Of a stretch of DNA of 64,000 nucleotides, positions 3,770 through 22,216 are shown in pieces (position 1 is the first letter of the stretch; each line of letters begins with the position of its first letter). The notes below the pieces were generated by a model. That model saw nothing but the letters and a program-made list of their open reading frames with translations, was not told the origin of the DNA and did not search any database. The DNA lies in sequence record DRR723986_3005; one strand, written 5' to 3'. Position numbers and translations under genes: made by a program.

Positions 3770-6700
3770 ATGAACAAGACATTATTGAAACTGGCGATGT
3801 CCGCCAGCTTAACCGCAATTGCCTTTACGACAGGCGCGTCAGCGGAAACCAGGCTGATGAAACAAGGCGCGATCTCTGAAGATCATATTGCTTTTGTATA
3901 CGGCGGCGACATTTGGATAGCAGACCGTGACGGCGACAATCCGCGCCAACTCACCACCCGGCGCGCACCGGAAATGATGCCGCAATTTTCGCCGGACGGA
4001 AAAACAATTGCCTTCTCTGCCACCTATGACGGCAACACAGATGTTTACACCATTCCCGTAACGGGCGGCCAACCCACACGCCTGACATGGCATCCCGGTG
4101 CCGATATTGTTGAAGGCTTCACGCCAAGCGGTGAGAATATTTTATTCACGTCCCGCCGGGAAATGACCAGCGGGCGCAGTGCGCAGGCTTGGCATGTAAA
4201 TATAAATGGTGGCTTCCCCACCAAAATTATGGATGCGGTTATGCAAAGCGGTGTTTGGGACACGGCAGGCGAACGTATCGCATACCAGCCCTATAACACC
4301 GCCCACCGCGGTGCCAGCGCATGGCGTAATCACAGGGGTGGTTCAACCCCGCCAATCTGGATTTTGACCCCTAGTAACGGCGAGTGGGAAGAAGTGCCGC
4401 ATGAACGCGCTTCTGATACCAACCCCATGTGGGTCGGCGATGATGTCTATTTCCTCTCTGACCGCAGCGGCATGAAAAACGTCTGGAAATATGACACCAG
4501 CAGCAAATCTGTCTCCATGGTGACTGACCAGAAAGATTGGGACATTTCCTGGGCTCGCCCCCACGGCACCGACATTTTGGTGACCACAACAGCGGGCGAT
4601 ATGATGGTGGTTGATACCCGGCGTGGCCGCACCCGTGCCGTCGATGTAACCGTTGCCACTGACCTACCGGAAGCTCGGCCCCAGTGGAAAGATGCCATGC
4701 TCAACCTGACAGGCGCAGGCCTGTCACCAACCGGCAAGCGTGCCGTTGTTACTGCGCGCGGTGATGTTTACACAGTGCCGCTGAAGGACGGCAGCACCCG
4801 CAATCTCACCCGAAGCTCTGGCATCAATGAAACATCAGGCCTGTGGTCACCCAAAGGCGGCGAAATCGCATATATCAGCGATGAAGGCGGTGCTTTAACA
4901 CTTAAAATCGCTGATCAAAACGGTGCCGTTAAGCGCAGCTTTGCTTTAGGCGAAGACGACTATTCCTTAGTTGACTGGTCTGGAAACGGCGAGAAAATTT
5001 TGTATGCAGACAACCACTTGGGTGTTTGGTCAATGGATGCAGCAACCGGTGATCGCAGCAAAATATATACCGACAACCGCCGATCAGGCGTGAACATCAG
5101 CCTGTCCTCTGACGGCAAATGGCTTGCTTATACAAAGTCACGTAGGAACTATTTCAACGATATATTCCTGTATAGCTTTGACGACGAAAGCCACACGCAA
5201 ATTACAGACGGCATGAGCCATGCTGTATCTCCGGCCTTCAGCCCGGATGGCAACTATCTGTATTTTGCCGCTTCAACCAATGCGGGCCCAACATCTGTTG
5301 GCCTTGATATGTCAACCCAGGAACGGCCCATTCGCTTTGGCCTGTATGCTGCAGTATTGGCAGCAGATGGCAAATCACCGCTTTTACCAAAGTCCGATGA
5401 TGAAGAAGAAAAATCAGCGGACGAAGGTGACGACAAAGAAGGCGATGAGGCCAAAAAGGACGACACCGCGATCACGGTTGACCTTGCGGGCCTAACAGAC
5501 CGCATTGTTGCCCTGCCGGTGGCAGAACGCTCCTATAGTTCCCTGCAAGTTGCGGGAGACGGCGCTTTGTTCTTCCTGGAAACAGACCAGCCCGGCGGTA
5601 CCATTGAGCCAAACGGTCGAGGTCGCCAATCAACAGCCTTGATGCGCTTTGACTTCACGGACAAAAAAGCCGCTAAAGCAATGGACATGGTTCAGGCTTA
5701 CAGTATATCCGCAGACGGCAAGCATATGATTGTTAACACACGGTCAAACGGCTTGATGACGGCCAAGGCAGTGAAAGACATAAACGCTGAAAAGTTAAAC
5801 ACAAGCGATGTGAAGGCCTTCATCAACCCCAAAGAAGAATGGGCGCAAATTTTTGATGAAACTTGGCGGTTTGAAAAACAGTATTTCTATGATGCCAATA
5901 TGCACGGACTTGATTGGGACGGTATTTACAAAAAATACCAACCACTGGTGCAGCATGTAGCCACCCGCGCTGACCTTACCCGCCTGCTCATCGACATGAT
6001 TTCCGAGATGCAAGTGGGCCACAACAGAACTGGCGGCGGAGACTTGTACCGCGACACGCCAGTGCAAATTGGCCTACTCGGCGCAAATCTTAGAGTTGTA
6101 GACGGCAAGTACCAGATTGCCCGCATCTTTAGCGGTGAAAATTGGAATCCGTTTGTTAACGCACCACTGGCAGCCCCCGGCATCGGCGTTAGCGAGGGCG
6201 ATTTCATTCATTCCGTGAATGGTGCACCTGTTTCCGGCGCAGAAAACATTTATGCCCACTTCATTCAAACGGTCGGCAAACAGGTAACCTTGGGCGTTAG
6301 CAGCGACGGTAATGCAGCAAACGCCCGTGACGTGGTGGTAGAACCCATCGCCAACGAGCGGCAACTGCGCCACTGGGCTTGGGTGGAAGGCAACCGCAAG
6401 AAGGTTGAAGAAGCCACTGACGGTAAAGTTGGCTATGTATACTTGCCAAACACTGGCGGGGGCGGTTTCACCTACTTCAACCGCATGTTCTTCGCCCAAA
6501 GCGACAAACCAGCCATGATTATCGATGAACGCCAAAACGGTGGCGGTCAAGCCGCCAACTATATTACTGACATTCTTTCGCGTCAGTATTTGTCAGGCTG
6601 GCAAGACCGTGACGGCATGACATTTGATACGCCGGGCGGTGCTGTGTTTGGCCCTAAGGTTATGCTGATTGACCAAGACGCAGGCTCGGGCGGTGACTTC

Positions 6701-7063: not shown

Positions 7064-7092
7064 AAAAGCCCCGGTCCGCCGGGGCTTTTTTT
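7064..7092. terminator. Bidirectional intrinsic terminator
   Basis: AAAAGCCCCGG-TCCG-CCGGGGCTTTTTTT between the convergent tricorn and TetR genes. Confidence 0.85.
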
Positions 7093-7105: not shown

Positions 7106-7699
7106 TTAATCCCGCTTACCGTAAGCAAGCACTACATCAATGGTATGGTCGGTGAAGCGGGCCAGTTTTTCTTCAGGTTCGCCGTCAATCTTCATGACCG
7201 AAAGCGCTTCGCTGGCAGAAAGTAATATCCGGGCATCATCCCGGTTCTCGCGGCTGATGTTATCCTCAGACGCCCACAAAATCTCGCTTAACTTGCTAAG
7301 CACCTGGTCCTCGAATGCGCGGTACTTGCGGCGCATGTCAGGGTCGAACCTTGCGGCCCAGCCGGAACGCACCACAACGTAATTGAGGTGACTATCAACC
7401 ACGGCCAGTGACAACGCCGCAAGAAGCCGAAGAGCGGCTGGCGCATCGGCTTTCTCTACCGTCATGTCATCAAAAAGCGCCAGAAAGAACCGCGAAATTT
7501 CCTCGGTCACGGCGTCCAACAATGCCTCACGCGTCGGGAAATAAACAAAAGTAGCAGCAGTTGAAACCCCTACCCTGCGCGCGATGTCCGCGTGCTTCGC
7601 TTCGCCGAAACCTTTTTCTGCGAACAAATCTATCGCCGCGGTCAGCAATTGCTTGCGGCGATCTTCGGGGCTGAGTCGGGTCCGGGCTGCGCGTGCCAT
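7106..7699 (-). CDS. TetR family regulator resembling Vibrio LuxR/HapR/SmcR
   Basis: N-terminal HTH RTRLSPEDRRKQLL...FAEKG.G...HADIA..GVS.A.TF.YFPTRE.L. Confidence 0.88.
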   Translation of the reverse strand: MARAARTRLSPEDRRKQLLTAAIDLFAEKGFGEAKHADIARRVGVSTAATFVYFPTREALLDAVTEEISRFFLALFDDMTVEKADAPAALRLLAALSLAVVDSHLNYVVVRSGWAARFDPDMRRKYRAFEDQVLSKLSEILWASEDNISRENRDDARILLSASEALSVMKIDGEPEEKLARFTDHTIDVVLAYGKRD

Positions 7700-7764
7700 G
7701 AAAAATTCCTGATTATTCTCTTTTTAAGTAGCCGGAAAACTGACCATTTTTCAAGGGATTAATC

Positions 7765-7790
7765 CTTTATTGATAATATTGTCAATAAAG
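7765..7790. promoter_or_regulatory. 26-bp palindromic operator between tetR and alkB
   Basis: CTTTATTGATAATATTGTCAATAAAG has one mismatched pair and is followed directly by TTGACA (7792-7797)-N16-TATTCT (7814-7819). Confidence 0.75.
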
Positions 7791-7866
7791 CTTGACAATG
7801 ACCTCTGACATCATATTCTTAATGTAATAGTAAATTTGCCTGCCCTTTTTACGAGAGAGACCACCA

Positions 7867-9045
7867 ATGACGGATACAACTGCCCCCTATAAAGACAGTA
7901 AAAAATACCTATGGCCACTGGCCTCGGTTCTTGGGGTTCTTCCTGTTATCAGCGTGTTTTGGTATATGGAAACCTTGCATCCATTAACGCTGTGGTTAAC
8001 GCCGCTGTTCTTTTACGGGCTTGTTCCTATTATTGAAATTTTGGGCGGCGAAGATGAAAACAACCCGCCACGCGAAGCGATCCCTGGCCTGAGAGATGAC
8101 CCCTTTTATCGCTGGTCTGCCTATATGGGCTTGCCGCTTGTATACCTCAGTTGGGTGGTTGGTGCATGGTTCATTGCAACGCAGCCTTTTAGCTGGAATG
8201 GCTACATCGCCATGACGGTGGCCGCTGGCTTAAACGGCGCAGGCTCGCTCAATGCTGGCCACGAAATTGGCCACCGGCGCGATAAGGTGTCAATTAATGT
8301 TGCGCGTTTCCTCTTGTGCCTGTGCGGCATGGGACATTTCCGCATTGAGCATAACATGGGCCATCACGTTCAGGTTGCCACGCCGGAAGACAGCGCAACC
8401 GCGATGATGGGCGAGAACTTCTACCAATTTGTGTTGCACGAGCTGCCTGGCGGCTATGTAAGAGCATGGGCGATTGAAAAGGCGCGGCTGGCACGTGCAG
8501 GCAAGTCTGCCTTCTCTCTGCGCAATGAAGTGCTGTTAAACACCCTGATTACCATTGCCATGTATACGGCCATGCTCATAGCATTCGGCTTGATTGTGCT
8601 GCCCTACTTGCTGATTGCAGCCCTGCTGTCAAACCTGATGCTGTCTAGCGCCAACTATATTGAGCATTACGGCCTGATGCGCGGCAAGCGCGATGACGGC
8701 AAGTATGAGCGGGTACAGCCGCATCACAGCTGGAACGCCAATCATGTTGTCTCAAATGTGATGCTATTTCACCTGCAGCGCCATTCAGACCACCATGCCC
8801 ACGCAGAACGGCCTTACCAGTGCTTGCGGCATTTTGATACATCACCTCAGTTGCCCGCGGGGTATTTCACCATGTATCTAGCTGCATGGATACCGCCGGT
8901 TTGGTTCAAGGTAATGGACCCACTAGTGGCAGAGCAAATGGGCGGCGATATGACGAAAGCCTATATTATGCCATCAAAGCGCGAGGCGATTATGCGCAAA
9001 TGGCACAAGGCAACACCCGACATTAGTGCAGTTGCCGCTGAGTAA
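7867..9045 (+). CDS. alkB: Alkane 1-monooxygenase (membrane di-iron hydroxylase)
   Basis: His boxes HEIGH, EHNMGHH, NYIEHYG and LQRHSDHHA; N-terminal D.KKYLW and GED.NNPP. Confidence 0.93.
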   Translation: MTDTTAPYKDSKKYLWPLASVLGVLPVISVFWYMETLHPLTLWLTPLFFYGLVPIIEILGGEDENNPPREAIPGLRDDPFYRWSAYMGLPLVYLSWVVGAWFIATQPFSWNGYIAMTVAAGLNGAGSLNAGHEIGHRRDKVSINVARFLLCLCGMGHFRIEHNMGHHVQVATPEDSATAMMGENFYQFVLHELPGGYVRAWAIEKARLARAGKSAFSLRNEVLLNTLITIAMYTAMLIAFGLIVLPYLLIAALLSNLMLSSANYIEHYGLMRGKRDDGKYERVQPHHSWNANHVVSNVMLFHLQRHSDHHAHAERPYQCLRHFDTSPQLPAGYFTMYLAAWIPPVWFKVMDPLVAEQMGGDMTKAYIMPSKREAIMRKWHKATPDISAVAAE

Positions 9046-9065: not shown

Positions 9066-9100
9066 CACAAAAGGCTCCTTTTAAAGGGGCCTTTTTTGTG
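9066..9100 (+). terminator. Intrinsic terminator after alkB
   Basis: AAAAGGCTCCTT-TTA-AAGGGGCCTTTTTT hairpin with U-tract. Confidence 0.75.
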
Positions 9101-21062: not shown

Positions 21063-21422
21063 ATGGCAGACGAAAGCGAAACACCTGAAGACATGGGTCT
21101 TACCGACCTGTCATCGGATAGCGCAAAAAGCCCGGACCTTGCCCCAAAAGAAGATGGGCAAGTGCGTACCGCCCAGGAACTGGAACCTGTATTTGACGTA
21201 CCCGTCCGGGTGCAAGCCATTTTAGGCCGGTCCACACTGGAGGTAAGCCAACTGTTAAAACTGGCCCCGGGCGCCGTAGTAGAACTAGACCGAAAAGTCG
21301 GTGAAGCCATTGATATATATGTCAATAATCGCTTAGTGGCGCGCGGTGAAGTTGTTTTAGTGGAAGACCATCTCGGTGTCACCATGACCGAAATCATCAA
21401 ACTAGACGGCGCAGCAATTTAG
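21063..21422 (+). CDS. fliN: Flagellar motor switch protein
   Basis: SpoA domain VFDVPV...LG...LLKL.PG.V.ELDRKVGEAIDIYVNNRLVARGEVV. Confidence 0.95.
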   Translation: MADESETPEDMGLTDLSSDSAKSPDLAPKEDGQVRTAQELEPVFDVPVRVQAILGRSTLEVSQLLKLAPGAVVELDRKVGEAIDIYVNNRLVARGEVVLVEDHLGVTMTEIIKLDGAAI

Positions 21423-21448: not shown

Positions 21449-22216
21449 ATGAGTACCGTTTTTGGCATGTTAACCGCTTTTTTGCTGGTAGTCGGCGCCA
21501 TTCTGCTTGGCGGGTCGCCGCTTGTTTTCATAAACCTGCAAGGCGTTTTAATTGTTATTTTAGGCACTATTGCCGTTACTGCCATTAGCTTTCGCCTGCA
21601 GGAAATGATCTCGCTGCCAAACAACATATGGGCACTACTCAGACACGGTCAACGCGACCCGAACGAAGAAGCCATCAAAGTATTGAAAATTGCGGTCGAG
21701 GCAAGAAAACACAATGACATCCTTATGCTTGAACGCCTTCTACCACGACTGAAAGACACACCCTTCTTGATGAAATCAATCCAATTGGTGGTGGACGGCG
21801 CGCAGCCAGACGAAATTGAACAAATCATGCGACGCGAAGCCAGCACAGCAAGTGCAAGGCATATGCGTGCGGTTGATTTCTTGCGTCGTGCCGGTGACGT
21901 AGCGCCTGCAATGGGCCTGATTGGTACGCTCATTGGTTTGGTAAGGATGCTTGGCAATCTTGATAACCCGGCGGCGATCGGCCCCGCTATGGCGGTGGCG
22001 CTTCTGACAACTTTCTACGGCGCGGTTCTGGCTCACCTTGTTTTTATTCCACTTGCGGCAAAAACAGAACATTGCACAGAAGAAGAAGGCCTTGTGAACA
22101 ACCTTTATGCGATGGGGGCCACCTCCATCAGGCGCAAAGAGAACCCGCGCCGCCTTGAGATGCTTTTAAACACAATTTTACCACCCGCGAAACGTGTGAC
22201 CTTTTTTAAGTCATAA
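21449..22216 (+). CDS. motA: Flagellar stator A subunit (MotA/PomA family)
   Basis: APAMGLIGTLIGLV.ML..L..P..IGPAMAVALLTTFYG motif; four TM segments. Confidence 0.88.
   Translation: MSTVFGMLTAFLLVVGAILLGGSPLVFINLQGVLIVILGTIAVTAISFRLQEMISLPNNIWALLRHGQRDPNEEAIKVLKIAVEARKHNDILMLERLLPRLKDTPFLMKSIQLVVDGAQPDEIEQIMRREASTASARHMRAVDFLRRAGDVAPAMGLIGTLIGLVRMLGNLDNPAAIGPAMAVALLTTFYGAVLAHLVFIPLAAKTEHCTEEEGLVNNLYAMGATSIRRKENPRRLEMLLNTILPPAKRVTFFKS

Follow-up and report, generated by a model that had tools for sequence, protein, structure and literature searches.

Control of alkB-type alkane hydroxylase genes by TetR-family proteins 'appears to be unique to the Actinobacteria', according to a review in which AlkX of Dietzia sp. 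DQ12-45-1b is an experimentally shown TetR regulator of such a gene, released by C10–C24 fatty acids, and AlkU of Rhodococcus is likewise a TetR dedicated to an alkB-type gene (PMC8784404). A putative proteobacterial TetR, Orf10 beside alkB1 of Alcanivorax hongdengensis A-11-3, is given there from 'sequence analysis only', and we liken it to the present case by its description (PMC8784404). LuxR and HapR of the Vibrionaceae control a large regulon under Qrr/LuxO. For SmcR-type proteins, no native ligand was known as of January 2026 (PMC12977469). Here we describe, in a 64,000-nucleotide stretch of sequence record DRR723986_3005 (the window) from a marine alphaproteobacterium, a gene for a HapR-like TetR-family regulator (tetR) that is divergent from alkB across a spacer carrying a box of the LuxR/SmcR type. 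No paper tying HapR-type regulators to alkB was found in a search without subscription journals, and an earlier description is possible.

The regulator has in common with the LuxR/HapR/SmcR/OpaR/LitR proteins an R-x-R-L-S-P N-terminal arm and a helix-turn-helix, with 31 of 61 residues identical, and it shares with LuxR/HapR/SmcR the 22-bp 9-4-9 palindromic box (TTATTGATA-N4-TATCAATAA) and a nine-helix fold (template modelling (TM) score about 0.8). Unlike Vibrio LuxR/HapR, it is encoded divergently from a single enzyme gene, in a conserved pair that has a single box, and it differs from them in its ligand domain, in one base contact and in its clade, as set out below. The AlkX gene is co-directional with and downstream of alkW1 and rubredoxin genes, whereas the window pair is divergent and has no rubredoxin gene nearby; AlkX also has a longer operator and is placed by the review in a separate TetR sub-family, a description that sets it apart from the window regulator (PMC8784404). 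The AlkX/AlkU-type order of alkB, rubredoxin(s) and regulator, all co-directional, does not occur in the window. FadR of Bacillus subtilis (YsiA; 3whb, 3whc), a local acyl-CoA-responsive repressor of lipid metabolism solved with stearoyl-CoA bound, is the next-best fold after LuxR/HapR (E 1.8e-5, TM 0.72), but it is only 17–18% identical and controls beta-oxidation genes rather than a hydroxylase. The window module is, as read from its sequence, most likely a local, ligand-released TetR switch on alkB with a LuxR-type operator.

The tetR–alkB pair and its operator box

The regulator starts MARAARTRLSPEDRRKQLL...FAEKGFGEAKHADIARRVGVSTAATFVYFPTREAL and contains HLNYVVVRSGWAARF further along in the open reading frame (ORF) translation; PF00440 (TetR_N; 46.2 bits, cut-off 24, residues 18–64) is the sole Pfam domain recognised in it. 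The divergent ORF gives an FA_desaturase match of 94 bits in Pfam and aligns with solved alkane 1-monooxygenases (8f6t_A, E 2.1e-110, residues 5–386; 8sbb_A, 7.4e-108), and its translation has HEIGHR, EHNMGHH, NYIEHYG and LQRHSDHH, which we take to be the AlkB histidine motifs. By these matches it is a genuine, intact AlkB. No rubredoxin-like CxxCG...CxxCG ORF of at least 40 aa was found in the window.

The only inverted repeat in the spacer is a gapless palindrome with arms of 13 nt each (7765–7777 and 7778–7790), of which 12 of 13 pairs are complementary. Its 22-bp core, TTATTGATAATATTGTCAATAA, matches the SmcR consensus box TTATTGATWWRWTWNTNAATAA (PMC2859563) at 21 of 22 positions and the 9-4-9 palindromic motif from chromatin immunoprecipitation sequencing (ChIP-seq) of Vibrio alginolyticus LuxR (PMC8034623) at 19 of 22, where two of the three mismatches fall in the 4-bp spacer, a poorly conserved part; matches were counted by hand, position by position. 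The core is found once in the window and was matched in 0 of 100 shuffles at up to three mismatches, and its half-site score of 17/18 makes it the sole site of at least 16/18 in the 64 kb. A predicted alkB promoter follows directly, its TTGACA −35 beginning 3 bp past the end of the box, and an alternative −35, TTGATA at 7770, falls within the box. The first-pass annotation had described a TetR divergent from an intact alkB across 167 bp with a 26-bp palindrome and an SmcR-type operator. The ORFs, the spacer, the repeat and both box comparisons confirm this, and the combination of TetR, box and alkB is real and far beyond chance.

A loose version of the box pattern has 12 matches in the window against 2.03 expected, all except the alkB site inside ORFs. 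The second-best site, at 15/18 with the outer TT changed to CC, falls within the fliN ORF, with a MotA/ExbB-like gene about 130 bp downstream of it; the site may be there by chance or be a second target.

When GTDB species genomes were scanned once with alignment A1, made from 30 family members and also used for the profile searches below, 76 loci were returned, of which 29 are of Kordiimonas/Kordiimonadales type (L001–L028 and L048) with regulators 42–82% identical to that of the window. Among the carriers of the module are the type strains of K. gwangyangensis (L017) and K. aquimaris (L008), and the analysis covered 12.6 kb of each of two complete Kordiimonas chromosomes (OZ001196.2 and NZ_OZ244153.1). 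In 27 of the 29, alkB lies directly upstream on the opposite strand, and the same divergent pair recurs in a distant alphaproteobacterial locus, L070, where TetR is 29% and AlkB 44% identical. All 28 alkB-linked loci have one box of at least 15/18 between tetR and alkB, and in 27 of the 28 its distance to the start of alkB is 51–130 bp. Judged by this co-occurrence, the box tracks alkB across the Kordiimonadales loci, and the local character proposed by the first-pass annotation stands. In L022, where an unidentified ORF parts tetR from alkB by 1.2 kb, the box is 87.5 bp from alkB and 1.1 kb from the regulator gene. In L004, from an uncultured Kordiimonas, an IS110/IS116-family transposase gene has inserted between box and alkB, leaving the box on the regulator's side and alkB about 1.4 kb from the operator. 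The distance from box to regulator start is constant (77.5–83.5 bp) only in the window, L001–L007 and L013, and reaches 230–340 bp in L008, L018–L021, L024 and L025. Two loci, L011 and L012, have a regulator (64% identical) beside a ~600-aa methyltransferase-domain gene, upstream of position 6001, in place of alkB; there, alkB was not found within 6 kb, nor was a box (best scores 11 and 12). In L013, alkB matches as two overlapping pieces in different frames with the first 54 residues unmatched, for which a frameshift, a pseudogene or an assembly error is possible.

Sixteen of the 29 Kordiimonadales loci, all of them within L001–L023, share the flanking protease, malic-enzyme and DUF2147 genes, a pattern that speaks for vertical inheritance and against a mobile cassette. 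A terminator-like stem-loop follows alkB, which thus looks monocistronic, and another stem-loop, with an A-run before the stem and a T-run after it on the + strand, separates tetR from the protease gene; the A-run makes it possible that this one is used on the − strand too. With terminator-like sites on both sides, tetR and alkB look like a closed module. The flanking protease is a 1087-aa tricorn-like protein (PD40 repeats, Tricorn C1, PDZ and S41 peptidase domains) whose gene is syntenic in several Kordiimonadales loci; where the window carries it, L004, L006 and L007 have a second, generic TetR gene, convergent just downstream of the HapR-like regulator. The remaining window, with flagellar, chemotaxis, Tol-Pal and Ruv genes and 50% G+C, is ordinary chromosome, and judged from its closest relatives the source organism is a Kordiimonas-like alphaproteobacterium.

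Sign and reach of regulation

The mechanism proposed here builds on features that are observed directly, namely the module, the conservation of its operator, the kinship of the regulator in sequence and fold, and its kept DNA-contact residues. The pair is probably a self-contained two-gene module, in which a TetR dimer on a single box controls alkB locally and is likely to repress it until a ligand releases the protein. The dimer would bind the single 22-bp palindrome abutting or overlapping the alkB promoter, and alkB would remain repressed until a hydrophobic, alkane-derived molecule enters the C-terminal pocket and frees TetR from the DNA. The ligand-domain fold of the nine-helix AlphaFold2 (AF2) model resembles SmcR and FadR. 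A long-chain fatty acid, an acyl-CoA, an alkanol or the alkane itself would be the candidate effectors, a guess made because partner genes are related to lipids or hydrocarbons, FadR is the next-closest fold and AlkX answers to C10–C24 fatty acids (PMC8784404). The DNA-binding head and the operator are of the Vibrio LuxR/HapR/SmcR type, for which the proposed reason is that a single wider TetR subfamily takes in this regulator and the Vibrio proteins.

TetR-family proteins encoded divergently from their target are usually repressors, with the neighbour within about 200 bp as a rule of thumb, and the window pair has a 167-bp spacer with a 26-bp palindromic operator. Symmetric palindromic sites are tied to repressed promoters in LuxR ChIP-seq (PMC8034623), and repression is favoured because the box is a full palindrome of this class. 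It is favoured too because the box ends 3 bp before one −35 and contains the alternative one, and because in L023 the predicted −35 falls inside the box.

Several observations weigh against a repressor dedicated to alkB. The window box is centred about 48 bp before the predicted start point, a position that suits an activator too, and consensus promoter scans of L017 and L021 gave none on the alkB strand, so that overlap with a promoter is not general. The 15/18 site inside fliN could be a second target, and L011 and L012, which keep the regulator without alkB or a box, suggest that other targets can exist. The window regulator has Arg in place of a Trp that is conserved in all 13 Vibrio proteins and in 42 of 44 distant relatives; the pocket of this subclade is therefore remodelled, and its ligand is not readable from its kin. 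The repressor reading is itself drawn from sequence, gene order and a predicted model.

If the regulator instead activated alkB, or both activated and repressed it, it would do so from a seat just upstream of the −35 by recruiting RNA polymerase. A centre near −48 is usable by activators, and the box ends 3–5 bp before TTGACA in the window and its near subclade (L001–L007 and L013). LuxR-family proteins are known to do both (PMC2859563, PMC8034623), but the site here is a full symmetric palindrome of the repressed-promoter type (PMC8034623). The box of other subclades, moreover, is only 51–64 bp from the alkB ATG, and that of L023 covers the predicted −35. Together with the usual repressing role of divergent TetR-family proteins, this makes activation unlikely.

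It is improbable that the regulator is a global one, doing the work of the Vibrio master regulator and adjoining alkB only by chance. Such a role would agree with a DNA-binding head and box shared with a regulator of hundreds of targets, with the excess of loose matches in the window (12 against 2.03), with a 15/18 site that lies in fliN and precedes a motA-like gene, and with the retention of the regulator in L011 and L012 without alkB. However, the single site of at least 16/18 in the 64 kb is the one at alkB, the remaining loose matches are inside ORFs, and alkB synteny extends over 27 of 29 loci with the box following alkB. Rfam finds no Qrr or other regulatory RNA family in the window, only a tRNA, a result that says little. 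Local repression of alkB by a ligand-responsive TetR remains the reading we prefer.

The regulator compared with LuxR, HapR and SmcR

A phmmer search of the PDB with the regulator alone returned LuxR/HapR/SmcR/OpaR proteins as all of the top 18 distinct sequences (E 5e-20 to 3.3e-15), followed by Mce3R at 2e-11, in alignments that mostly end near residue 115. With the A1 profile the same 18 were found at 2.5e-48 to 1.6e-39 and the next protein at 2.5e-16, which sets LuxR/HapR more than 20 orders of magnitude ahead of every other solved TetR, and the SmcR/LuxR alignments span profile positions 3–196. The AF2 model (predicted local distance difference test (pLDDT) 90.8, nine helices) gave a consistent result in Foldseek, where all 23 listed rows to rank 35 are LuxR/HapR/SmcR (TM 0.78–0.82). 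The best match is Photobacterium profundum SmcR (8zf3_A; E 3.5e-8, TM 0.82, 189 columns, 28% identity), and the first from outside this group is the acyl-CoA-binding repressor FadR of B. subtilis at rank 43 (E 1.8e-5). The profile and fold matches therefore suggest that the likeness to LuxR/HapR/SmcR covers the whole fold, beyond the DNA-binding head. Seven of 120 homologues among the matches listed bear automatic JGI names with a 'hemagglutinin/protease' regulator, so annotation pipelines already flag the HapR likeness.

For comparison of individual residues we used P0349, a Vibrio protein with SmcR numbering in which 17 of the 18 published SmcR pocket residues are retained, as a proxy for SmcR. 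Identity between the regulator and P0349 is 31/61 in the DNA-binding part and 17/131 (13%) beyond it. Of the six base-contacting residues of LuxR (Arg9, Arg11, Ser49, Ala51, Phe54 and Asn55; PMC8034623), five are kept as R6, R8, S46, A48 and F51, and the equivalents of R17, H39, Y56 and R60 are kept too. The sixth contact, Asn55, is replaced by V52, and its equivalent is Val in 30 of 30 Kordiimonadales proteins and 43 of 44 distant relatives. The ligand pocket is far less similar: only F72 and A156 are identical among the 18 SmcR pocket residues listed (PMC2859563), and the changes include W114 to R, F115 to S, H167 to L and C170 to S.

The best NCBIfam match is NF040929, the HapR model, which scores 70.6 bits where its cut-off demands 350, over profile positions 4–118 of 200 only; in a scan of 132 relatives with this model none reached 350 bits, the highest being P0117 at 245.3. 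Membership in the LuxR/HapR equivalog family was rejected on this score, the separate clade and the 2/18 pocket residues. The window regulator is not itself a quorum-sensing master regulator.

That the regulator is specifically LuxR/HapR/SmcR-like, as the first-pass annotation had it, is borne out by its best single-sequence, profile and predicted-fold matches. The Vibrio motifs given there agree with Vibrio proteins, and HLNYVVVRSGWAARF does align with DWLKVWFEWSAS, although with just three identical residues. The further claim that the switch is built from the HapR/SmcR subfamily fails in its strict sense, given 70.6 against 350 bits, a clade of its own (97–99 in the Shimodaira–Hasegawa-like approximate likelihood ratio test (SH-aLRT)) and 17/131 identity beyond the DNA-binding domain, and with 2/18 pocket residues kept the locus points only weakly to the natural ligand of SmcR.

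Relatives in other phyla and the direction of evolution

Myxococcota, Binatia and uncultured Gamma- and Deltaproteobacteria, among others, supply the 46 other usable loci, which are mostly 28–38% identical (L074, 51% over a partial match). In 26 of the 46, and likewise in 26 of the 29 loci of Kordiimonadales type, the 450 bp in front of the regulator gene contain a box of at least 15/18; elsewhere there are four such sites in 740,719 positions, a background of about 0.002 per 450 bp. All four background sites precede a partner gene, either alkB (L022) or wax-ester-synthase operons (L034 and L041). A generic TetR/AcrR regulator with a coincidental SmcR likeness and palindrome, which would agree with the recognition of TetR_N alone by Pfam and with 13% C-terminal identity to the SmcR-numbered Vibrio protein, is highly improbable and was rejected on the lead of LuxR/HapR over other solved TetRs by more than 20 orders of magnitude in the profile search, the agreeing fold ranking and the box beside relatives across phyla.

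Neighbours were surveyed by Pfam over 98 candidate ORFs from 51 loci (Table 1). Outside the Kordiimonadales the partners are mostly a diiron-like protein, and alkB is a partner in only one other locus. This commonest partner, of about 394 aa, is divergent from the regulator at 105–469 bp in 26 of the 46 distant loci, is 66–90% identical across Myxococcota, Binatia, Gammaproteobacteria and Spirochaetota bins, and has two DEARH-type motifs. No family of Pfam or NCBIfam matches it above cut-off; its weak matches are to R2-like ligand-binding oxidase (26 bits against 194) and a VlmB homologue (1e-3, PDB), and an AF2 model from alignment A2 (9 rows) reached a pLDDT of 41.6, too poor for a fold search. 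A paper on R2-like oxidase holds nothing about regulators (PMC9314684). The spacers beside this partner have a box of at least 13/18 in 26 of 26 cases and of at least 15/18 in 21 of 26. In the soluble diiron monooxygenase, wax-ester-synthase, P450-only and luciferase-like groups no box was found in the 450-bp stretch upstream of the regulator. As the regulator is the common element across differing partner genes, the box would belong to the regulator. In the wax-ester-synthase-linked clade the regulator gene comes after the synthase gene in the same direction, and boxes occur upstream of the synthase gene in L034 (two) and L041, which suggests an operon headed by the operator.

Table 1. Features of the window and of the related loci (L numbers), with the basis of each assignment
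Feature	Position	Strand	Basis
HapR-like TetR-family regulator, 197 aa	7106..7699	-	ORF; PF00440 match; PDB and fold matches
Divergent intergenic spacer, 167 bp	7700..7866	.	between TetR and alkB ORFs
26-bp palindrome with 22-bp LuxR/SmcR-type box (7767-7788)	7765..7790	.	inverted-repeat search
Predicted sigma-70-like alkB promoter, -35 TTGACA, 16-nt spacer, -10 TATTCT	7792..7819	+	consensus scan only, 10/12 matches
alkB, integral-membrane alkane 1-monooxygenase, 392 aa, without fused rubredoxin	7867..9045	+	ORF, Pfam, PDB
Stem-loop between protease gene and tetR 3' end, possible two-way terminator	7064..7089	.	11 pairs
Terminator-like stem-loop 3' of alkB	9069..9095	+	stem-loop scan
Tricorn-like protease, 1087 aa	3770-7033		
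fliN ORF	21063-21422		
Second-best box site, 15/18	21307-21328		
MotA/ExbB-like gene	21449-22216		
IS110/IS116-family transposase gene	L004:4548-5645		
alkB matched in two pieces	L013:1409-2405		
Second, generic TetR gene	L004:6597-7184, L006:6591-7307, L007:6591-7307 (-)		
~394-aa diiron-like partner	L030, L032, L033, L035, L036, L038-L040, L042-L044, L046, L047, L049, L052, L054-L057, L059, L063, L064, L066, L071, L072, L075		
Example of ~394-aa partner gene	L038:4197-5381	-	
P450 and ferredoxin-reductase-type gene	L037		Pfam neighbour
P450 alone	L069		Pfam neighbour
Soluble diiron monooxygenase	L050, L058, L060, L061		Pfam neighbour
Luciferase-like monooxygenase	L051		Pfam neighbour
Wax ester synthase	L031, L034, L053, L062		Pfam neighbour
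AurF-like diiron protein	L068		Pfam neighbour
Enoyl-CoA hydratase	L074		Pfam neighbour
Boxes upstream of synthase gene	L034:4420-4471 (two boxes), L041:4434-4455		

The window protein, 11 of the 29 Kordiimonadales loci and 44 of 47 other loci (L073, L074 and L076 were left out as truncated or weak) were placed in a quick IQ-TREE phylogeny (LG+C20) of 85 rows together with 11 Vibrionaceae proteins, including named LuxR/HapR/OpaR, LitR and SmcR-like ones, 12 representatives and six weak matches. The Vibrionaceae form a clade (99 SH-aLRT) on a long stem, separate from a Kordiimonadales clade (99). P0193, P0150 and P0235 are the nearest non-Vibrio relatives of the LuxR clade. In a second tree the weak matches were replaced as outgroup by six generic TetRs from the locus flanks. 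The window protein falls in the 14-row Kordiimonadales clade in both (99 and 97) and outside the Vibrionaceae clade. When rooted by the outgroup, the whole family is one clade (96), and Vibrio is nested within 66 rows that form a clade (97), where it and the Kordiimonadales clade branch from a polytomy. A tree holding the 62 non-Vibrio rows together was not rejected by the approximately unbiased (AU) test and was 2.58 log-likelihood units better (p-AU 0.574), and the outgroup branches are very long; we therefore claim no ancestral arrangement. The first-pass suggestion of an ancestral local role accordingly keeps only the nesting of Vibrio among locally arranged relatives in the quick rooted tree, with the opposite arrangement not rejected, and it is limited further by the confinement of alkB as partner to the Kordiimonadales and one other locus. 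One could go further and suppose that the LuxR/HapR head and the 22-bp box are an old module of multi-phylum, ligand-responsive local regulators of genes for lipid and hydrocarbon oxygenation (alkB, the diiron-like protein, P450 and wax-ester-synthase operons), from which the Vibrio master regulators derived by keeping head and box and losing the local partner; fatty-acyl-type effectors of the relatives would then show the ligand class of SmcR/HapR. We regard this scenario as tentative and rather doubtful.

The more general result, as far as gene neighbourhoods and box matches indicate, is that the LuxR-type head-and-box pair serves a multi-phylum family of local regulators. Usually deemed a Vibrio speciality, the pair is found beside single metabolic genes in Kordiimonadales, Myxococcota, Binatia and uncultured Gammaproteobacteria. 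The 2/18 conservation of the pocket limits the transfer of ligand findings to SmcR, and local relatives with an obvious metabolic partner would be easier places for finding a ligand. The compact tetR–box–alkB module could serve as a hydrocarbon or lipid biosensor, and the regulation of alkB in Alphaproteobacteria would gain a concrete proposed switch, made of one regulator, one 22-bp site and one promoter.

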